64,000 nt of DNA from the sequence record KT184313.1; one strand, 5' to 3'. This document shows positions 435-22,934 of this stretch, in pieces. The translations under genes and the position numbers were made by a program. The notes beneath the pieces are model-generated. The model was given only the letters and a program-made list of their open reading frames with translations. It had not been told where the DNA came from and searched no databases. This stretch comes from Enterobacteria phage KhF1. Position 1 is the first letter of the stretch; the number at the start of each line of letters is the position of its first letter.

Positions 435-1220
435 TTAGCTCTTTGCGTCTAAGAAGGTAACTTCTGGCGAAGAGAAAACTGTCTCTATATCCTCATCAGT
501 TCTTGCATAGATGTAAGTATCTGCATCACTGCCAAATGTTACTGCAATCCTGTGATTGCTCTTCGACAGGTGGGTAACTAGAGCGTTACTTAGAGACATC
601 TTTTCAACCGGAGGGTTACTTTGATGTATCTTACCTTTTCTTCGTCTGAAGAGGGTAACTGCATTATCCGTGAACACAACTACACCTGCAAAGTATTCTG
701 GTTCACAGTAGTTCTTCCAACCTGAGCGTAACTTGTGGTACATCTCTCCTTCATAGACATATAGATAAACATCTACACTCTTCATCACCTGATTAATGAT
801 AACTGTGACGGCTTGAGGGTCTAGCCCACCGATACCTGCACCAATCATAGGTAACCCGACTTTCTTCAACTGATTGACTTCACAGTATCTGTTAAGCTGT
901 TTCAAAGATGACTCTAAAGCACTGTATCGGGCATCTTTACCAGTCTTAAGCTGAGTGTAAAGGTTAGCTATACGACCTTGTTTTAAACGTGCTACAGAGA
1001 AATTACCCAGTAAATTTTCACAGGGTTTGTGTCCTATACCACCTGCATATAGATAAACTTCTGTATCGGTCTCATATGCTTTTGGGTAAAGTTTAGAAAT
1101 CTTGTCAGCGATACCTGCACCCATTAAATTCATACAGTTGCAACCGTGACCGATGATGTCAAACTTACCTTTATCAAATGCGGCAAAGATATCACCATTG
1201 ATTATTTTTACAATACCCAT
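435..1220 (-). CDS. Macro-domain (ADP-ribose binding/processing) protein with about 110-aa C-terminal extension of unknown function
   Basis: N-terminal IINGDIF...DIIGHGCNCMNLMGAGIA resembles macro-domain Gly-rich ADP-ribose-binding motif; 261 aa. Confidence 0.6.
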   Translation of the reverse strand: MGIVKIINGDIFAAFDKGKFDIIGHGCNCMNLMGAGIADKISKLYPKAYETDTEVYLYAGGIGHKPCENLLGNFSVARLKQGRIANLYTQLKTGKDARYSALESSLKQLNRYCEVNQLKKVGLPMIGAGIGGLDPQAVTVIINQVMKSVDVYLYVYEGEMYHKLRSGWKNYCEPEYFAGVVVFTDNAVTLFRRRKGKIHQSNPPVEKMSLSNALVTHLSKSNHRIAVTFGSDADTYIYARTDEDIETVFSSPEVTFLDAKS

Positions 1221-8652: not shown

Positions 8653-8667
8653 AGTTTTCTCCAGAAA

Positions 8668-8692
8668 TTAAAAAGGCTCCCGTAGGAGCCTC
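8668..8692 (-). terminator. Intrinsic terminator downstream of NAMPT-like gene
   Basis: Minus strand AGGCTCC-TACG-GGAGCCT followed by T5; stem 8674-8691. Confidence 0.65.
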
Positions 8693-8705
8693 TTATCATA
8701 TACTT

Positions 8706-10487
8706 TTAAAGCTGCTTGTCAATATTATTTCGAATATCACCAAGCGTTGTGTAACCGAACTGCTCAGAGTCGCTAAAGACTAAACGTAAAGCACAAGCTG
8801 GATGTTCAAGTACATCTGCAAAGCTCTGGAATCCATAGCCATCTACAGCTTTCAACTTATCACCATCCCACATAGGTGCTACACCACCAAAAGCAGACTT
8901 CTTAACACCACTATCTGTTTTAGGGTCTTTTGCAAGCATAATCTCTTTACCACCAATGCTTGCAAGAGTTGCTTTAACAGCAAATGCAAAGGTGTCACGA
9001 GTCATGTACTGGTAAGTGTAAGAGCCTACGCCAAACACTACGTTAGAGCTTGCAAAACCCATTTCATACAGACGCTTCAGGATTTCGTTTGCACGTTCCA
9101 GCGTGATAGAGTCGCCATAGATAAGGCCAATGTGCTCATCCAGTACCTTAAAACCTTTAGAGTTAATAGTTCCTCCAAAGATGTTGTACAGTGTCTTAAT
9201 AGCTCCATCAATCTCAGCTACAGGACGTGTTACAACGTTTGCAGAACCAACCATATAAGCGTTTTTCAACAGCACTGTATCAGCAACTTCAAAGTCTTCT
9301 CTGTCAACAACCATTTCGTAGCCTTCTGACAGTAGCCATCCAGCAATACCATAATTGATGTTTTCAAGCTTCATGTTCAGAACAGCATTCAACATTGTGT
9401 CGCTGGCTTCCAGCTTGCTAAGGTGCTCATAATAAGCCTTTTTAGCACACTCTAAGTGGATTGCTTTATAACCTGTGACAATATGTACAGGGTCTCCAGA
9501 GTCAGGACGAATTACCAGTTTACCGTCACGTCCCATAATCTCTTTGCGAAGTGCTGGTAAGATTTCTGACACAGTTCTCCAGAAGTTATAAGTGTCTGAA
9601 ACAATACTTGCAATACCAGTCGGGTAAGTCTCTGTTAAGAAGCGACGGAAGGTTTGCAACTCACCTTTGAAGCGTCTTTCTTCTTCAATCAATTCATTAC
9701 CACCTTCCCAAGCAATGTTTGCACACATTACAGAGTGTTCAGTGGCTGGTACAGAACCACCAATATCAGAGATTGGGTAAGACTGCCCGTAGATGCGTTT
9801 AGCTGTATATACAGCAGGGAAGCTATCAGTTCCTTTAAAGCTGGTTAAGTGGCCTACAGCATTAAATGCGTCATCAGTAAAGCCGGACATACCACGCATA
9901 GCAAAGTCATGGCACTGATAAGGTAAATGTAAGTCATTGTCACAAGTAAGGTCAGCCCACTTCTTACAGATACGTTTGTAGTGCAATGCAATAGTTGCGA
10001 TGGTACAAGCCTTCCAAATCTCAGCAGAGAAAGCATCTTCCAGATACCCTGCTACCCAATGGAAACCTGAAACAGTGTTCTGGAAGACAACCATTGGGAC
10101 ACGCATAGGGACAACTGTACCTTCTTCTACAGCGTATACTTCAACTGGCAGATAACCCAAGTCGTGAAGTGCTTCCCAATGCTCTCGACCGATAGCATCT
10201 TTACCCAGAACACCATTCATGACTTCTAAGATTTCGTCAATTGCTTCTTTTTTATCACGTTCAAAGAAGGTGGCATTCCAATGGTCTATCAAGTAATCTT
10301 TAACAAAACGTTGAATACCAAAAGCCACTACACCGTCAATTGCCAAAGGGCTGTTAAACCATTTGTCGCTACGTGGTGTCAGGTTGAACATCAAATATTC
10401 TGTTGCACTAGGGTACTGGTAAACATGACCAGATTTGTAAGCATCTGCGTTTAAACCTGCTGGTACTGCATAAAGTGATTTAGTCAT
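8706..10487 (-). CDS. Nicotinamide phosphoribosyltransferase family enzyme (NadV/NAMPT-like; possibly Namat-type)
   Basis: Matches NAMPT blocks: DAYKSGH, HDFAMRGMSG, FKGTDS, PATEHS, VSDTYN, IRPDSGDP, NSKGFKVL...YGDS, VFGVGS; 593 aa with about 80-aa insertion. Confidence 0.85.
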   Translation of the reverse strand: MTKSLYAVPAGLNADAYKSGHVYQYPSATEYLMFNLTPRSDKWFNSPLAIDGVVAFGIQRFVKDYLIDHWNATFFERDKKEAIDEILEVMNGVLGKDAIGREHWEALHDLGYLPVEVYAVEEGTVVPMRVPMVVFQNTVSGFHWVAGYLEDAFSAEIWKACTIATIALHYKRICKKWADLTCDNDLHLPYQCHDFAMRGMSGFTDDAFNAVGHLTSFKGTDSFPAVYTAKRIYGQSYPISDIGGSVPATEHSVMCANIAWEGGNELIEEERRFKGELQTFRRFLTETYPTGIASIVSDTYNFWRTVSEILPALRKEIMGRDGKLVIRPDSGDPVHIVTGYKAIHLECAKKAYYEHLSKLEASDTMLNAVLNMKLENINYGIAGWLLSEGYEMVVDREDFEVADTVLLKNAYMVGSANVVTRPVAEIDGAIKTLYNIFGGTINSKGFKVLDEHIGLIYGDSITLERANEILKRLYEMGFASSNVVFGVGSYTYQYMTRDTFAFAVKATLASIGGKEIMLAKDPKTDSGVKKSAFGGVAPMWDGDKLKAVDGYGFQSFADVLEHPACALRLVFSDSEQFGYTTLGDIRNNIDKQL

Positions 10488-10532
10488 CTTTTAATCTCTC
10501 TCAAAATGGGGCTTTCAATCCCCTATAAACTT

Positions 10533-11429
10533 TCAATCAAGGTTTGCTACAGTAACTTGACTATAATGTGTTAAGCCACGGTCTTTAGCTTCGCCTAAAG
10601 AGTTTGTAGTGTAAATATGGTCGATACCGTTGTCAAGAAGGTTTTCAACACCTTTAGAGAAGATACCATGTGTTACATAAAGCTCAACACGTTTTGCACC
10701 TGCTTCACGTAGGTGTTTAGCTGCCTCTACGAAGGTTCGACCACCATCACAGATATCATCAAGAATCATGACGGTTTTATCGGTCAAATCAACATCGTCA
10801 AGGATTCGCATACCAGTGATTTCTCCAGTCTTAAGATTTCGCACCTTAGACATTGTGATATATGGTTTATCCACCTCTTTAGCAGTCTCTGCAATCTTCT
10901 TAGAAGCACCTGCATCTGGGGCTACTAAGTAATCAATTAGAGGGTCATTTGCATAGTGGACTGCAATCTCCTTTTGAGGAATACTCTGGAAGCAGTTAAA
11001 CAGGTTATCTGGTACATAGCTGTGAGGGTCAACTGCACAGACTGCGCCAAACCCCATTGCATTAATCTGTTTAGCAAAAACCTTTAAAGCTGCTGCGTCG
11101 CCTTTAAACATGTGACGGTCATAACGTGCATTTGGTAAGTAGTAAAAGATGACAGTCTTTAAAGCATAATCATGAGGAATTAAATCATCAATTGCTTCTT
11201 TAGCAAGTGCCACAGCAAACAATGTATCCTTATCATAACCTTTTACAATCATAATCACATTGTTGATGGATGATGCTGCATAAGCAGTGAAATCAACAAA
11301 CTCTGGCGAAAAGTGTCCACCAATCTCACCAGAAGGAAATTGGATGATGTTAAACTCTTCTTCATGAGTTCCTTTAGTTGGTGAATGAACTGTAACACGG
11401 ATAGATGTTTTCATAGTTTTCTCTCTCAA
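10533..11429 (-). CDS. Ribose-phosphate pyrophosphokinase family enzyme (Prs-like; possibly Adps-type ADP-ribose pyrophosphokinase)
   Basis: PRPP-binding loop VMILDDICDGGRTF; NARYDR ribose-phosphate loop; C-terminal KRVELYVTHGIFS; 298 aa. Confidence 0.8.
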   Translation of the reverse strand: MREKTMKTSIRVTVHSPTKGTHEEEFNIIQFPSGEIGGHFSPEFVDFTAYAASSINNVIMIVKGYDKDTLFAVALAKEAIDDLIPHDYALKTVIFYYLPNARYDRHMFKGDAAALKVFAKQINAMGFGAVCAVDPHSYVPDNLFNCFQSIPQKEIAVHYANDPLIDYLVAPDAGASKKIAETAKEVDKPYITMSKVRNLKTGEITGMRILDDVDLTDKTVMILDDICDGGRTFVEAAKHLREAGAKRVELYVTHGIFSKGVENLLDNGIDHIYTTNSLGEAKDRGLTHYSQVTVANLD

Positions 11430-11704
11430 TCAAAAGTTACGTTTGTTACTGCCATTGCAGATTTGCATTTTTCAGGGTCTACAACGTGATAAAGTACACT
11501 ACAGTTACCTGTGCTGTCTGGTACAGGTTTAACCCATTGTTGCTTGACAGTTGGTTCGCCTAAGTCTTTGTAAGAACCATCTGTAAAGTTGTTTACCATC
11601 TCAAGTGCAATTGGCTCTGGAACATGACCACGTATCATGTACATTTCACAACCATTACCTCCTTCACTGACTAATGGTAAAATCTCCCACTTTTCTTTAG
11701 CCAT
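11426..11704 (-). CDS. Hypothetical protein (92 aa)
   Basis: ORF with 4-nt overlap to Prs-like gene. Confidence 0.4.
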   Translation of the reverse strand: MAKEKWEILPLVSEGGNGCEMYMIRGHVPEPIALEMVNNFTDGSYKDLGEPTVKQQWVKPVPDSTGNCSVLYHVVDPEKCKSAMAVTNVTFD

Positions 11705-12212
11705 TATAAGTTGCCCTATAAACTGTCTCGAACTTCAACAGGAGAGATATTGCCAAATCTGTATAGTTGTTGTCAAGCACATCTGGCATATTATTTTTGA
11801 TATATTTCTCTTGCTCTTCATAGGTCATCTTGGGGATACTTAGGAGGCTATCTCCTTGCTTCTGGTTATCAGTTTTAGTTTGGATAAACCAGTTTGCACA
11901 GTGATGTTCACCACCTTTTGTAACAGGTTTGTGATGACCTAATGTAAATGTTTGCTTACCCGTATACCTGCAAAGATTGTTCAGTGTTGCAATGGTGTTC
12001 TTCACAACACACCATTCATACAGGTTATCTATGGTGTAGTGTGGGTAATAACGGACAAGTGCTCTTTCACGGAAGTTATCACGATTCCAAAGAACCATGT
12101 GATTAGAATTTGAAGGGTCATATTTGTGGGAGTCTATAAACTCTTGACGCTCATCAAAGCTGAGTCTTAGAACTGACATTGCAGCAGAACGTTTTAGGTT
12201 TGACAGATACAT
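11697..12212 (-). CDS. Hypothetical protein; weak HNH-like His/Cys cluster
   Basis: LGHHKPVTKGGEHHCANW cluster; not a clean HNH motif. Confidence 0.35.
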   Translation of the reverse strand: MYLSNLKRSAAMSVLRLSFDERQEFIDSHKYDPSNSNHMVLWNRDNFRERALVRYYPHYTIDNLYEWCVVKNTIATLNNLCRYTGKQTFTLGHHKPVTKGGEHHCANWFIQTKTDNQKQGDSLLSIPKMTYEEQEKYIKNNMPDVLDNNYTDLAISLLLKFETVYRATYNG

Positions 12213-12262
12213 ATCATCTCCAAAATAAAAGGGAACCTTTACAGTTCCCTTATAGTATCTGT

Positions 12263-12583
12263 TTACTGAGCTACTTTCAAGATGCTTGTGAATGAAATCT
12301 CACTCTCATCCATAAACTCTTTTGCTTCCCCAGTAACTTTTACAAAGTTATCTAGGCAGATAATCTTCTTATCTTTCTTGCTGTAGGTTAGCTTAACCTT
12401 TTCAATATCTTTCTTAGAGCTTTTCTCTTCATTAAAGAGTTTTACAGCTTCTTTGAATGGTAGGTATGAGCCATCATCATCGCTAATAAAACCTGTACCA
12501 CAATAGTAGAAGTTATATTCTTTAGCCATAAACTGGCACAGTACGAAAATCTGTAATTTACGAGTGTTATAAACTTTGCTCAT
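12263..12583 (-). CDS. Hypothetical protein (106 aa)
   Basis: ORF in packed block. Confidence 0.4.
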   Translation of the reverse strand: MSKVYNTRKLQIFVLCQFMAKEYNFYYCGTGFISDDDGSYLPFKEAVKLFNEEKSSKKDIEKVKLTYSKKDKKIICLDNFVKVTGEAKEFMDESEISFTSILKVAQ

Positions 12584-14505: not shown

Positions 14506-16650
14506 TTACATAGAAACTCTGTCACGAATCTCAGCGATTTTTGCATCGTTCATTCGGGATTCACCTTTAATCTTAGTCCATCCAAGATACCCACACACCC
14601 TGTTAATCACAGAGATATCATGTGAGTGACAAACTTCACATTCTTCAACATCAGCCTTTGGCCTGTTACCACAATGTTCACAGATTGCTAAGTCAAAGTT
14701 AAGTCCCTGATAGAAACCTTTCAACATTCCTCTTGTAATACAACTTTTAAGTGCTGATAAGTTTTCTGGATTAGCTACCCTTACATACTGGATTCTTCCG
14801 CCTCTACAGATATGGAAGAAGGGTTCTTCTAAGTCCTGCTTCTCAAATGGTGTAATATCTGCTGCAACATTCATATGGAAACTGTTTGTAAAGTATTCCT
14901 TATCAGAAACACCTTTGATAACCCCAAACATATCTCTGAACTGTTTTAGTTGAGTTCCGCAAAGTGATTCTGCTGGAGTACCATAGACGGCATATAAGAA
15001 GCCATCTTCATTTTTAAACTCTTCGGTTTTCATGTTGATGTATGCCAGAACATCATATGCAAAACTATAGCTTCCAACTTCATGAAGTCGTTTACCTTCA
15101 GCAAGAACAGACAACTCATCAAGCGCAGTAACACCAAAAGAAGCTGTGAAGGACTTCACAATATCCCAACCAACCCTGTCAGTAGGCTTCTTAGTTCCTT
15201 TATACAGACCACCTTGTGTAAATGCAAGAGGGTTAGAACTTGCTGGCATATTAGCAATCATTTCGTAACGTTTCTTGTGGAAGCTGCGAATCATTTCTAG
15301 GTACTTATCAAGCTCTTTCCAGAAGTCTAAACCATTCTCTTTAGAATACTGGTAAATCATTGGTAAGTTCAAAGATACAGCACCAATGTTAGCACGACCA
15401 ACGTAGAACTCTTCCCCATTCTCGTTAAGATACGGAGATAAGAACGCTCGGCAACCCATCGGTGAAATTACCTTGCCAGAACGCTCAAAAGCCTCTGCTA
15501 CAGCACCATGACCAGATACACTTAAGAAATCTGGATACATTGCTTTAGAGCAACACTCAATAGCTTTACTGTACAGGTGGCCTTGACAGATATTCTCATT
15601 GTGTCTCTTCTGGTCATAAATATAAACCAGTTTAGGGAATACAACAGGTTTCTTACTCTTACCTTGACCATTCATACGAACATCTAGGAGAGTACTTGCA
15701 ATCATATATTGCAGTCGGTTATCTTCATTGGACATATCTGAGTCAAGTAACCCGAATGTCAAAGTTGTGAATGCAAAATCACCACGGCTACAAGGCACGG
15801 TATTTAGTTTCATCTCAAGTGACTGAAAACCTTGAGTCAGTTCAATTTGTAACTGCTCCATTACATAATTGTGGTAATGCTCTTTAGGAATACCATAAGA
15901 TGATGCTTTCTCAGCATGATAGCGTAGAGACTTCTTAGCATACGGTACAAGTACCTTATCAATCTCTGCTAAAGTAAAACCACCAAATTGCTGTGCAGTT
16001 GCTGAAAGTACTACGTCACCAATAACCTGTAAGGCCGACAGCACAGACTTTGGTTCACAATATTCGATGCCAGACATTTCAAAGCCACCTTTCAGGACTT
16101 TGCCAATGTCAAACAGGCAACAGTTGATACCACCAAAAATTAGGTCTCTTAAATCATGGATATAGATAAATCCTTTTTCAATGGCTTCAAGTTCCTCTGG
16201 TGTTAAATGGTACTGTTTAAAGATTTCTTTAGTCAGGTAACCACGAATAATTGAACCTTTTGTAGAAATTAAACTGCTGTCAAAATTAGCGTTTTCTCGG
16301 TCGCCTAAGAAAAGTGTATCTTTGGTCTTCTGGTAGAGTTCATCCCAATTTTGAGCAACTTCTTTACGGTAATTTCTATATGTTGAGTAAGACTCATAAA
16401 TCTCGTGATTGACTTCTGCCAAAGCACCCTCAACAATACTGTGAATATCATTTACAGAAATTAGCAAATTATTCTGCTTAGTGGACTTTACCAGAATCCT
16501 CATAAATGCTGACTCAAGAGCTTGAGTAACATCTGGTGGAAGCTCTTTATAACCAACTCTGTTAGCTGACTTTGTGACTGCTGCTAAAACTTTTTTGATA
16601 TCAGGTTCTTCAAGTGAGCCATTCTTTTTAATAATCTGTACTTTGTTCAT
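14506..16650 (-). CDS. nrdD: Anaerobic ribonucleoside-triphosphate reductase (class III)
   Basis: N-terminal ATP-cone; C-terminal zinc ribbon CEHCGN...CEVCH and glycyl-radical motif RVCGYLG; 714 aa. Confidence 0.9.
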   Translation of the reverse strand: MNKVQIIKKNGSLEEPDIKKVLAAVTKSANRVGYKELPPDVTQALESAFMRILVKSTKQNNLLISVNDIHSIVEGALAEVNHEIYESYSTYRNYRKEVAQNWDELYQKTKDTLFLGDRENANFDSSLISTKGSIIRGYLTKEIFKQYHLTPEELEAIEKGFIYIHDLRDLIFGGINCCLFDIGKVLKGGFEMSGIEYCEPKSVLSALQVIGDVVLSATAQQFGGFTLAEIDKVLVPYAKKSLRYHAEKASSYGIPKEHYHNYVMEQLQIELTQGFQSLEMKLNTVPCSRGDFAFTTLTFGLLDSDMSNEDNRLQYMIASTLLDVRMNGQGKSKKPVVFPKLVYIYDQKRHNENICQGHLYSKAIECCSKAMYPDFLSVSGHGAVAEAFERSGKVISPMGCRAFLSPYLNENGEEFYVGRANIGAVSLNLPMIYQYSKENGLDFWKELDKYLEMIRSFHKKRYEMIANMPASSNPLAFTQGGLYKGTKKPTDRVGWDIVKSFTASFGVTALDELSVLAEGKRLHEVGSYSFAYDVLAYINMKTEEFKNEDGFLYAVYGTPAESLCGTQLKQFRDMFGVIKGVSDKEYFTNSFHMNVAADITPFEKQDLEEPFFHICRGGRIQYVRVANPENLSALKSCITRGMLKGFYQGLNFDLAICEHCGNRPKADVEECEVCHSHDISVINRVCGYLGWTKIKGESRMNDAKIAEIRDRVSM

Positions 16651-21139: not shown

Positions 21140-21464
21140 GGTATTTCTCCAAGTTTCTTTTTAGATATAACCAACCGTAGTCAGTCCTTTCTACACCCAT
21201 AAAAAGTGGAGCCATCACAACTTTACCAAAAGTATTCCTGTGTTGGCAGATTTCAAAAGAATACTCTTTCTCAATGTCAATCCCGTATTTGTACAGGACT
21301 GCTTTTAAAACTTGTTCATTATCCAGAAGTGTATCTGGAGTCTCACCATACTTTTCAAGTAACGGGTCATTCATAAACACCGTCATAGAAATATTGTAGT
21401 TTGAGAAGTGGCTCTTCTGAGCCACACCTTCTTTATTAATGTTCTGTGAATCCATTATAACCAA
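21132..21464 (-). CDS. Hypothetical protein (110 aa)
   Basis: ORF; start uncertain (overlaps upstream gene). Confidence 0.35.
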   Translation of the reverse strand: MVIMDSQNINKEGVAQKSHFSNYNISMTVFMNDPLLEKYGETPDTLLDNEQVLKAVLYKYGIDIEKEYSFEICQHRNTFGKVVMAPLFMGVERTDYGWLYLKRNLEKYRV

Positions 21465-22191
21465 CCCCTTTTAACCAGCACTTCAGGTTATTAGCATCAT
21501 AATTCAGTTTCGGGTATGAGGTTACATGGAACTGCTCACCATCATAGTAGACAATATCTGCAATCCATAGTCCATTCTCTTTACAGAAGTCTTTATCTGC
21601 TTTAGAGGTAATTGGATTAACTTCTACAAAACCATCTACACCCAAATCCTTTAAGCTACATACAATACCTTTGCAGATAACGCATGTGTCAGATACTACC
21701 ACAAAAAGTTCTTGGCTTTCAAGTTCTACAATGTATTCACCAAGCTGAACTTTAGGGAGATTAGATTGCTTCATAATCTTCCCATCGGCTGCGCGAACAA
21801 TTGCATACCACTCTTTACCATCAACTACTGACATTCTGATGATACACTCTTGACCAGTACGCTTCTCAATATCTGCAAGACGTTTTAAAGCTTCTTCATA
21901 GTCGTCTGTGTACTTCAGGTCATTATTATGGCAAACGGCTTCCATAGCGCCATTGTGGTCATGCTGTGACAGATAAATCAGACCGTCAAGAACATATTGC
22001 AAATCTGCCTGAGCATCCAGTGTCTCAATGGGGTCTTTCTCTTCAATTGCTTTTACAAGCTCTTTTGCTTCTTCAAGCATACATAGAGATTGAGATTTCA
22101 AAGACTCCCAATACTCATCACTGTAAGGTTGCTTTTGAGTGTTTCCACAACGAAGATTCCAGTTTTTTACTGATTCTCTTGAGTTAAACAT
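21436..22191 (-). CDS. Hypothetical protein (251 aa)
   Basis: ORF; no recognisable motif. Confidence 0.45.
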   Translation of the reverse strand: MFNSRESVKNWNLRCGNTQKQPYSDEYWESLKSQSLCMLEEAKELVKAIEEKDPIETLDAQADLQYVLDGLIYLSQHDHNGAMEAVCHNNDLKYTDDYEEALKRLADIEKRTGQECIIRMSVVDGKEWYAIVRAADGKIMKQSNLPKVQLGEYIVELESQELFVVVSDTCVICKGIVCSLKDLGVDGFVEVNPITSKADKDFCKENGLWIADIVYYDGEQFHVTSYPKLNYDANNLKCWLKGVGYNGFTEH

Positions 22192-22436: not shown

Positions 22437-22934
22437 TCAAGCACAGTTTGCTTTCATTACCTTATGGATTCTTTTTTCAGCATCTTCATAAGTTTCTTTA
22501 GTAATAAACTTAATTGCTGCAATATTGGCATTGTAGAAGAGCCTGAGCTTCGAGTCAATCCTTTTTGTCATTACATCGAATTTATGTTGAAGGTTTGCTT
22601 CACCATAGACTAGACCACCTTTTGTGTAGTAGGTTTGAATAATGTAAAAATCAAAAGATTCTTTTCCAAAGCTTTCAATATCTTTTTTAATATACTCAGA
22701 AGAGGTTTCGTAAGTCATCCAATCACTCTCCTTAGTGACTACCTTCTTCCGAGTCTTCCCAGCAACTTTTCTTTTTGTCACACTGTTAAGCTGTTTCTTT
22801 CCGATATAATATTGTCCAGTCTTCTTACAGTGCACTAAATAGACAAAGCCAAAATGTTTAGTGGGGTCAACTTCCCCACATAAAGATACCCAATGACCGT
22901 AGGTAGGGCAATTGCCAAATCCTTTAATCTTCAT
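22437..22934 (-). CDS. Possible GIY-YIG-type endonuclease
   Basis: GFVYLVHCKKTGQYYIGKK resembles GIY-(9-11)-YIG motif, with downstream basic residues and Glu/Asn. Confidence 0.35.
   Translation of the reverse strand: MKIKGFGNCPTYGHWVSLCGEVDPTKHFGFVYLVHCKKTGQYYIGKKQLNSVTKRKVAGKTRKKVVTKESDWMTYETSSEYIKKDIESFGKESFDFYIIQTYYTKGGLVYGEANLQHKFDVMTKRIDSKLRLFYNANIAAIKFITKETYEDAEKRIHKVMKANCA

Follow-up and report, generated by a model that had tools for sequence, protein, structure and literature searches.

Does a pair of adjacent phage genes annotated as a PRPP synthetase (Prs) and a nicotinamide phosphoribosyltransferase (NadV) serve ordinary salvage, or does it rebuild NAD+ that has been destroyed by host defense? 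We addressed this question for a Felixounavirus, Enterobacteria phage KhF1, using a 64,000-nt stretch of its DNA (KT184313.1; hereafter, the window). A sequence-only reading had proposed the pair as a candidate Adps/Namat module for NAD+ reconstitution. The product of the first gene matches Pfam Pribosyltran/Pribosyl_synth and PHROG "ribose-phosphate pyrophosphokinase" (E 7.3e-98), and the product of the second matches Pfam NAPRTase/NAMPT_N and PHROG "nicotinamide phosphoribosyl transferase" (E 7.6e-202). Given these PHROG E values, the identification of both genes is far beyond chance. Coordinates of the genes and of the features discussed below are collected in Table 1.

As had been claimed, the pair consists of two co-oriented ORFs on the minus strand, separated by a 45-nt gap. 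The proposed length of adps stood only in part: the mechanically defined ORF (10533-11429, minus strand; 298 aa from TTG 11429) does exist, but the most likely start is ATG 11414, which yields a 293-aa protein. This start is preferred since TTG 11429 directly abuts the stop codon of the upstream ORF, TTGAGAGAGAAAACT precedes ATG 11414 (the Namat start has the same context), and the annotation of Bas63 gene 79 (293 aa) uses the equivalent ATG. The likely adps coding sequence is therefore 10533-11414. The hairpin in the spacer between the genes is weak (-8.3 kcal/mol, z -2.1) and is followed by the Namat ribosome-binding site, GAGAGAGA; its counterpart in the relative AYO145A is annotated as a terminator.

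Table 1. Features of the adps-namat locus and of the distal Macro gene (window coordinates).
Feature	Coordinates	Strand	Remarks
adps (ADP-ribose pyrophosphokinase, PRPP-synthetase-like)	10533-11414	-	293 aa, likely start ATG 11414
Adps N-terminal domain, divergent allele	10875-11414	-	codons 1-180
Adps catalytic beta-hairpin lysine K190	10845-10847	-	equivalent to ICP1 Adps K185
Adps PP (donor) loop DDICDGGRTF	10731-10760	-	residues 219-228
Intergenic spacer	10488-10532	-	45 nt; weak GGGG-N8-CCCC hairpin, then AUUUU
namat (nicotinamide ADP-ribose transferase, NAMPT-like)	8706-10487	-	593 aa
Namat selectivity-clamp loop PRSDKWFNSPLAID	10335-10376	-	residues 38-51; K42, then stacking W43
Namat lineage-specific insert	9207-9464	-	86 aa, residues 342-427
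Namat selectivity-clamp helix motif GSYTYQYMTRD	8994-9026	-	residues 488-498, adenine clamp
Sigma-70-like promoter, TTGACA-16-TATGAT	8695-8722	-	11/12 consensus matches
Intrinsic terminator closing the unit	8671-8694	-	10-bp stem (5 G-C pairs), then T run
92-aa ORF, no assigned function	11426-11704	-	phrog_4726; tightly packed upstream of adps
171-aa ORF, no assigned function	11697-12212	-	phrog_3500; first gene past the upstream terminator
Upstream intrinsic terminator, bounds four-gene unit	12229-12251	-	-14.1 kcal/mol, z -3.1
Macro-domain protein, candidate distal Adpp	435-1220	-	261 aa; phrog_335 "phosphatase"

The two genes are located in an early/middle block, with nrd genes on one side and rIIA on the other. 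The strong terminator expected after namat at 8668-8692 was confirmed at 8671-8694 (-16.6 kcal/mol, z = -3.8); none of 200 shuffled sequences folded as well. The 3′-terminal part of namat contains a promoter whose -10 element ends where the terminator stem starts; both this promoter and the upstream terminator have annotated equivalents in AYO145A. The 92-aa ORF is probably cotranscribed with adps, and the whole unit between the two terminators probably comprises adps, namat, and the two small upstream ORFs. The 171-aa ORF has weak HNH-like similarity (phrog_2214, E 2.2e-6). The 92-aa ORF occurs in this phage subfamily only, with no association beyond it, and was rejected as a NARP1 component. 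The window contains no tRNA genes.

NARP1 was discovered in phage Bas63, as genes 79-80 (Osterman et al., bioRxiv 10.1101/2024.02.11.579819). In this phage, Escherichia phage JohannRWettstein, bas63_0079 encodes Adps and bas63_0080 encodes Namat (Osterman et al. 2024). The genes in the window are orthologs of this experimentally validated operon in full synteny: gene order, gene lengths, and the 45-nt spacer are the same, with the 92-aa and 171-aa ORFs upstream and the rIIA side downstream. Namat is identical to its Bas63 ortholog at 584 of 593 residues (98%) and has the same length, the 86-aa insert included; Adps is identical at 230 of 293 residues (78%). An additional 345-nt gene (bas63_0081) just past the namat terminator of Bas63 is absent from the window. 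A Namat neighbor accompanies 97% of the Adps-clade genes in the source study, and in the window, too, the Adps-clade gene lies immediately next to the Namat gene. The syntenic orthology with Bas63 supports the NAD+ reconstitution reading, and we are highly confident that the pair is the NARP1 core counter-defense pathway (Adps plus Namat) of a Felixounavirus. While correct, the presence of NARP1 in this genome is already known: since the pathway was discovered in this same phage genus, the finding is not new, and the identification as such adds nothing to current knowledge.

Without genes 79-80, Bas63 becomes sensitive to SIR2-HerA and plaques with ~20-fold lower efficiency; NAD+ depletion in infected cells is deeper, and formation of ADPR-PP, which is seen solely when wild-type Bas63 meets the defense system, is abolished (bioRxiv 10.1101/2024.02.11.579819). 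The effect requires neither pncC nor nadR of the host (bioRxiv 10.1101/2024.02.11.579819). Bas63 Adps did not purify, and the biochemistry rests on the SPbetaL1 and ICP1 homologs; demonstrations of escape from defense and of ADPR-PP formation are limited to Bas63, FADO, and heterologous constructs. By analogy with this work on orthologs, the pair in the window would have the same chemistry and anti-defense phenotype. A host NADase defense (SIR2-HerA/Nezha, DSR1/2, Thoeris, SEFIR, or similar) would cleave NAD+ to ADP-ribose and nicotinamide. Adps, a PRPP-synthetase-like enzyme that is a hexamer in a characterized homolog, would be the first to act. Namat, a NAMPT-like dimer, would then swap pyrophosphate for nicotinamide, regenerating NAD+ directly, with neither NMN nor host salvage enzymes involved.

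The sequence-only reading had also held that sequence cannot separate canonical NadV and Prs from Namat and Adps. This view is outdated: sequence criteria for both enzymes were provided by structural papers in 2026 (PMC12774641, PMC13586617), and the signatures fit both proteins of the window. The clamp helix of Namat follows the pattern GS-X-phi-X-phi-X-phi-TRD, where X is aromatic (PMC12774641). Residues 488-498 of the window protein read GSYTYQYMTRD, while the equivalents in true Nampt enzymes are GAQTYQRNTRD (NMN-forming HdNadV) and GGALLQKVDRD (Xanthomonas/Xcc Nampt). The clamp loop between beta1 and beta2 carries either an Arg at the third position or a Lys/Tyr followed by an adenine-stacking residue (PMC12774641). 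In the PRSDKWF segment of the window protein, K42 aligns with SPbetaL1 R40 and is followed by W43, a combination identical to that of Bas63, which is the cited example of a Lys-type loop (PMC12774641).

Comparison with SPbetaL1, whose Namat and Adps are the biochemically characterized pair, extends these similarities. Namat residues D15, Y17, F195, R198, D221, A248, H251, and R327, and likewise D329, G458, D459, G488, S489, T496, R497, and D498, map onto SPbetaL1 contact residues. Across 35 aligned sequences, D15, Y17, F195, R198, D221, H251, R327, and D329 do not vary, and the Nampt-like catalytic core (partner-protomer Asp/Tyr, Phe, Arg, Asp, the phosphorylatable His, and Arg306/Asp308) is present. 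A structure comparison, proposed earlier as a check, returned the Namat crystal structures 9w5x/9w5w as the best match of the AF2 model of Namat (pLDDT 93.4; TM 0.95 on target). Thus, fold, catalytic residues, and the clamp-helix motif are shared with SPbetaL1 Namat (PDB 9w5w, 9w5x) at about 38% overall identity, whereas the SPbetaL1 protein has Arg40 in place of K42-W43 and lacks the insert found at residues 342-427.

Adps homologs share a remodeled PP loop, represented in ICP1 by C215-S220 within DDICDGAAS (PMC13586617). In the window protein, DDICDGGRT (residues 219-227) occupies the place of DDMIDTGGT in E. coli Prs, where the equivalent of the complete donor loop is DDMIDTGGTL. The catalytic lysine, K190, was found inside MSKVRNLKTGEI. 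Residues contacting ADPR in the ICP1 enzyme are F18′, R87, F92, H121, D161, D212, D213, and D216 (PMC13586617). In an L-INS-i alignment that included Gary Adps and in which the FSD/FPS motif was aligned consistently, F26, R97, H131, D167, D219, D220, and D223 of the window protein were conserved, and one position was matched approximately: ICP1 F92 aligns with M102, next to F103 in a flexible loop. ICP1 contact F223 aligns with E230, i.e., with no match at this position; I199, T227, F228, and the DDICDG stretch at 219-224 are also conserved. The protein ends about 20 residues short of E. coli Prs, with an alignment gap across alpha11-alpha12, and lacks the C-terminal filament/regulatory module of Prs. 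With Adps of Vibrio phage ICP1, the window protein has in common the DDICDG loop and the catalytic Lys as well as the acceptor residues (Arg/His/Asp), an N-terminal Phe, and a truncated C terminus, although the two proteins are only about 33% identical and a 37-aa ORF separates the two NARP1 genes in the ICP1 operon. Together with gene structure, orthology, and fold, this conservation of contact and catalytic residues was observed directly in the window.

Pfam, PHROG, and GenBank names all read Prs and NadV. Taken literally, they imply that the Prs-like enzyme converts ribose-5-phosphate to PRPP, that the NAMPT-like NadV produces NMN, and that host NadR/PncC completes NAD+ synthesis. The Namat protein does pass the NCBIfam nicotinate/nicotinamide phosphoribosyltransferase equivalog NF006629 (467 bits versus a cutoff of 405); however, this model is nondiscriminating, since the verified Namat of ICP1 passes as well (439). 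The Adps protein passes, marginally, the broad TIGR01251 Prs subfamily model (122 versus 113), on which E. coli Prs scores 423; with the PRK01259 subfamily model (cutoff 297), E. coli Prs attains 533 bits. In contrast, Adps fails every NCBIfam Prs equivalog cutoff (best, 104 bits versus 296), as does the verified ICP1 Adps. E. coli Prs (b1207), HdNadV (9ke8), and human NAMPT share ancestry, fold, and core catalytic residues with the window proteins but differ from them in the donor-loop and clamp motifs: the clamp motif of Namat is absent from true NadV/Nampt enzymes, and Adps has DDICDG instead of DDMIDTGGT and is devoid of the Prs C-terminal helices. In vitro, Namat is able to convert PRPP to NMN, about half as fast as human Nampt (PMC12774641), and the window enzyme may retain a secondary NadV-like activity of this kind; yet SPbetaL1 Adps gave no product in a canonical Prs assay, and, as mentioned above, the Bas63 phenotype is independent of host pncC and nadR (bioRxiv 10.1101/2024.02.11.579819). 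The canonical Prs/NadV reading was therefore rejected on curated thresholds, motifs, and published genetics, and we consider it highly improbable.

A NAMPT-family gene also encodes the first enzyme of NARP2, which combines Nampt (NadV) with a bifunctional NMN adenylyltransferase (NMNAT)/Nudix enzyme, while NARP3 consists of a PnuC-like transporter and a NadR-like enzyme. The partner gene in the window is Prs-like, the defining feature of NARP1. No Pfam match to NMNAT, Nudix, NadR, or PnuC was found among 26 scanned ORFs (small ORFs were partly covered), and none of these is present in the Bas63 genome annotation; the earlier statement that the window has no NMNAT holds within this scope. With their partner enzymes not found in the 26 scanned ORFs, NARP2 and NARP3 were rejected, and the chance that either operates here is negligible.

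Within the NARP1 pair itself, the two genes differ in how closely they follow Bas63. DNA identity drops to 64-69% over about 11000-11400, compared to 91-98% in the flanks. The N-terminal domain of Adps is 67% identical to that of Bas63 at the amino acid level (dS 2.18, dN/dS 0.105; synonymous sites are saturated), while the C-terminal domain is 96% identical. The N-terminal domain is thus an old allele that is divergent relative to Bas63. The commonest Adps allele of Felixounavirus, which the window carries, differs from the one tested in Bas63. In Namat, the 86-aa insert is predicted to form an ordered alpha/beta subdomain, and its model has no recognizable structural relative. Lineage-specific regulation, or escape from host inhibitors, might account for both the Namat subdomain and the existence of two N-terminal Adps alleles of ancient divergence.

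Vibrio phage Gary carries a NARP1-AP operon, in which a Macro-domain gene encoding Adpp, an ADPR-1′′-phosphate phosphatase, is inserted between adps and namat. No Pfam match (E <= 0.01) was found in the four nearest neighbors of the window pair (the 171-aa and 92-aa ORFs upstream, a 111-aa ORF and rIIA downstream); the 111-aa ORF is separated from rIIA by a 58-aa membrane ORF, too short for an informative scan. Thus, no Adpp was detected among the four scanned neighbors within two genes of NARP1, and neither RyDEP (RyR-domain) nor Adpp was retained as an operon component. The KhF1 genome nevertheless encodes all three protein families of the Gary operon: a Macro-domain protein is encoded 13-14 genes, about 7.5 kb, downstream of namat, on the same strand and in the same early/middle block. 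It could represent a dispersed NARP1-AP, in which this protein would act in trans, converting ADPR-1′′-phosphate, the product of aRES-type NADases, to ADPR for Adps. We regard this as a possible but rather unlikely extension of the pathway.

The Pfam Macro match of this protein is clear (32.3 bits versus a cutoff of 22). It shares phrog_335 with the characterized Gary Adpp and aligns with it end to end (27% identity, E 2e-13); compared to the Gary protein, it is extended at the C terminus by about 100 aa. Identity to other operon-embedded Adpps reaches 36%. The TARG1/DarG-type catalytic Lys/Asp are missing, with Q90 and G131 at these positions (Q and A in Gary Adpp); the best NCBIfam match is nevertheless the DarG macrodomain, far below the cutoff. 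The published NARP1 survey scanned only two genes on each side, a range too narrow to include this Macro gene, and lists no Felixounavirus. On the other hand, the Macro family is not bound to NARP1: homologs occur in 999 Escherichia-phage records, versus 178 with an Adps homolog. Since the family is also found in phages without NARP1, the presence of an Adpp-family protein in the window is necessary but not sufficient for a NARP1-AP assignment. A profile of 12 operon-embedded Adpps failed to discriminate true Adpps, scoring 105 bits for the window protein, 110 for a Mosigvirus macro protein without an adjacent NARP1 gene, 113 for FADO, and 91 for a Kuttervirus macro protein. Judged from these sequence comparisons, the link between the Macro protein and NARP1 is hypothetical.

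The same gene pair is found in more than 250 sequenced relatives, and the names "ribose-phosphate pyrophosphokinase" and "nicotinamide/nicotinate phosphoribosyltransferase" still mislabel these genes in databases, although a handful of sequence motifs now suffices for correct reannotation of Adps and Namat. If the Macro protein does serve NARP1, NAD+ would be rebuilt even after aRES-type cleavage, and the published 15% of NARP1 phages with Adpp would be an underestimate. The Macro gene could thereby broaden the range of NAD+-depleting defenses that these phages resist, a possibility that would be relevant to the choice and engineering of therapeutic FelixO1-type phages.

Two minus-strand ORFs 45 nt apart, one NAMPT-like and one Prs-like, were found where the sequence-only reading had placed them (8706..10487 and 10533..11429), and the strong terminator said to close the pair was also recovered. 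In PHROGs, the 593-aa ORF matched "nicotinamide phosphoribosyl transferase" (E 7.6e-202) and the Prs-like ORF "ribose-phosphate pyrophosphokinase" (E 7.3e-98). While the ORF and family of the Prs-like gene stood, its 298-aa length most likely did not. Since TTG 11429, the start of the 298-aa version, sits right against the stop codon of the ORF before it, TTGAGAGAGAAAACT precedes ATG 11414 (the Namat ATG has an identical upstream context), and the Bas63 ortholog is annotated from the equivalent ATG, the adps coding sequence is most likely 10533-11414.

Features of the adps-namat region and the distal Macro-domain ORF
Feature	Position	Strand	Description
Macro-domain ORF	435..1220	minus	261 aa; ortholog of bas63_0095, "putative phosphatase"
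Terminator 3′ of namat	8694-8671	minus	10-bp stem then T run; −16.6 kcal/mol; z = −3.8 vs shuffles
namat	8706..10487	minus	593-aa ORF; Pfam NAPRTase + NAMPT_N
adps-namat spacer	10488-10532	minus	weak hairpin GGGG-N8-CCCC then AUUUU
adps	10533-11414	minus	293 aa from ATG 11414 (most likely start); Pfam Pribosyltran + Pribosyl_synth
Divergent Adps N-terminal domain	10875-11414	minus	mosaic patch vs Bas63
92-aa ORF	11426-11704	minus	8-nt overlap with 171-aa ORF; 11 nt then adps
171-aa ORF	11697-12212	minus	weak HNH-like similarity; follows upstream terminator
Upstream terminator	12251-12229	minus	−14.1 kcal/mol

Since the adps-namat locus is 90 to 97% identical to ~230 FelixO1-type phage genomes and the window, over its first 25 kb, shows at most 97.4% identity to any record, the window is a Felixounavirus (Ounavirinae) identical to no deposited genome. 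Felixounavirus-like sequence was also seen in three records that probably represent mixed assemblies or carry a wrong name: MG065664.1, MG065668.1, and GU169904.1, filed under "Campylobacter phage A126/A132" and "Staphylococcus phage SA1".

NARP1, the pathway in which Adps (ADP-ribose pyrophosphokinase) and Namat (nicotinamide ADP-ribose transferase) rebuild NAD+ from ADPR via ADPR-PP, was defined with genes 79-80 of Bas63 (JohannRWettstein), a BASEL phage belonging to Felixounavirus. Without these genes, Bas63 plaquing on SIR2-HerA was ~20-fold lower and NAD+ depletion deeper; ADPR-PP was detected only when wild-type phage met the defence system, the effect was independent of host pncC and nadR, and the biochemistry was performed with SPbetaL1 homologs (10.1101/2024.02.11.579819). 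With the Bas63 plus strand corresponding to the window minus strand, the two phages share the 45-nt adps-namat spacing and the neighbor genes; window Namat is identical to bas63_0080 at 584 of 593 residues and window Adps to bas63_0079 at 230 of 293. The proposal of an Adps/Namat pathway is upheld by this orthology and synteny, by the motifs of both proteins, and by curated-model scores.

In a 2026 structural study of SPbetaL1 Namat, a "selectivity clamp" binding the adenine of ADPR-PP was described; it comprises a helix, GS-X-phi-X-phi-X-phi-TRD with aromatic X, and a variable loop giving the stacking residue, arranged as Lys then stacker in Bas63 Namat (PMC12774641). The window Namat helix reads GSYTYQYMTRD (residues 488-498), and K42-W43 in its loop fits the Bas63 type. 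In contrast, the NMN-forming Haemophilus NadV (HdNadV) has GAQTYQRNTRD at this place and Xanthomonas Nampt has GGALLQKVDRD. All catalytic-core positions map onto SPbetaL1 Namat: D15, Y17, F195, R198, D221, A248, H251, R327, D329, G458, D459, G488, S489, T496, R497, and D498.

The sequence-only reading had proposed profile-HMM and structure-based comparison with Prs and NadV; the structural comparison came out for Namat, and the Prs models came out for Adps. The AlphaFold2 model of window Namat (pLDDT 93.4) had Namat crystal structures as its top match (TM 0.95 on the target), with HdNadV and human NAMPT ranking below. Window Adps failed all NCBIfam Prs equivalogs (best, 104 bits against a cut-off of 296) and passed the broad subfamily model TIGR01251 marginally (122 versus 113), a pattern shared with the verified Adps of ICP1. 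For E. coli Prs, the scores were 533 bits on the subfamily model PRK01259, where the cut-off is 297, and 423 on TIGR01251. The NadV-type model NF006629 accepts window and ICP1 Namat alike and is therefore non-discriminating.

Structures of ICP1 Adps (2026) place ADPR contacts at F18′, R87, F92, H121, D161, D212, D213, and D216, with a remodelled donor PP loop (C215-S220), a catalytic hairpin lysine (K185), and no Prs C-terminal alpha11-alpha12 module (PMC13586617). When the ICP1, Gary, window, and Bas63 Adps were aligned with E. coli Prs, the window protein was found to keep F26, R97, H131, D167, K190, I199, DDICDG (219-224), T227, and F228; at all residues tested, its allele equals that of Bas63. 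E. coli Prs differs in its DDMIDTGGT donor loop and extra C-terminal helices, where window Adps has DDICDG and a short C-terminus. Matches to ICP1 F92 (window M102, with F103 adjacent) and F223 (E230) are approximate only. Plain Prs plus NadV salvage, the alternative use of such a pair, is contradicted by these Adps and Namat motifs, by the Prs thresholds, and by the Bas63 genetics. NARP2 (Nampt with NMNAT/Nudix) and NARP3 (PnuC with NadR-like) each need partner genes, which were found neither among 26 Pfam-scanned window ORFs nor in the Bas63 annotation; the earlier reading had likewise seen no NMNAT in the window.

Two observations concern Namat itself. Residues 342-427 (86 aa; 9207-9464, minus) form an insert found only in Ounavirinae-type phages and predicted with confidence to fold as an independent alpha/beta subdomain; no structural relative was found in PDB or BFVD. 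Chromosomal 496-aa homologs of Klebsiella, Cronobacter, Kosakonia, and Erwinia (P0069, P0073, P0085, P0093, and others), named nicotinate phosphoribosyltransferase, carry the Namat-type helix GS[FY]TYQYNTRD, which fits the published bacterial NARP1 homologs.

DNA identity to Bas63 drops to 64 to 69% at ~11000-11400, with flanks at 91 to 98%. Adps codons 1-180 share 67% protein identity with Bas63 (dS 2.18, saturated; dN/dS 0.105), while codons 181-293 are 96% identical. The N-terminal domain is an old allele introduced by recombination and kept by purifying selection. The window-type allele is the majority among sequenced relatives (155 records at least 90% identical to it, 98 at 60 to 80%), so the in vivo work was done on an Adps allele other than the common Felixounavirus one.

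The 171-aa and 92-aa ORFs, restricted to Ounavirinae and without assignable function, lie in order between the upstream terminator and adps, and probably form one transcription unit with adps and namat, located in the early/middle block between the nrd genes and rIIA. The spacer hairpin, which in phage AYO145A carries a rho-independent terminator annotation, could be a partial attenuator setting the Adps:Namat ratio. At 8671-8722 and 12229-12280 (both minus), a sigma-70-like promoter ends exactly at the start of the terminator stem; transcripts begun there would lack the hairpin 5′ arm and could escape termination, in which case each site would be a compact terminator/promoter junction. Just past the namat terminator (~8655-8665) lies a variable insertion site: Bas63 has an extra 345-nt gene here (L005:15509-15853) that the window lacks, and other relatives have insertions of ~350 bp or, with an HNH endonuclease, ~468 bp. 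Elsewhere, an nrdD-like ORF (14506-16650, minus; 714 aa) is uninterrupted. In the Bas63 annotation, nrdD consists of two pieces joined across a homing endonuclease gene; from ORF length and this annotation, the Bas63 nrdD intron appears to be absent from the window. Also seen were a 251-aa protein bearing a PRA-PH/MazG-like pyrophosphohydrolase domain (21436-22191, minus) and a SegE-type GIY-YIG homing endonuclease (22437-22934, minus).

The four scanned nearest neighbors of adps-namat gave no Pfam matches, and neither of the known in-operon accessory domains, Macro (Adpp, the ADPR-1″-phosphate phosphatase of NARP1-AP) or RyR (RyDEP), was seen among them. A Macro-domain ORF is found on the namat strand, 13-14 genes further downstream; its C-terminal ~100-aa extension had no Pfam match. 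Its product belongs to the Adpp family: it shares phrog_335 with the Adpp characterised from Vibrio phage Gary and aligns to that protein along the full domain (27% identity, E 2e-13); identity to other operon-embedded Adpps reaches 36%. Opposite the catalytic K84 and D125 of TARG1, it carries Q90 and G131, where Gary Adpp shows Q and A. No Felixounavirus is listed in the aRES study; as it scanned only two genes on each side of every NARP1 operon, a gene this distant would have been missed. The phrog_335 Macro family is not specific to NARP1. Among Escherichia-phage records, 999 have a Macro homolog and 178 an Adps homolog, and a Mosigvirus macro with no NARP1 gene beside it scored 110 bits on the Adpp profile, versus 105 for the window protein. 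We consider a functional link of this protein to NARP1 rather unlikely.

Overall, adps-namat is a known system, previously described in the genus of the window phage, Felixounavirus. The value left lies in the re-annotation criteria and in three modest leads that can be tested: the majority Adps allele, the orphan Namat subdomain, and the possible distal Adpp.
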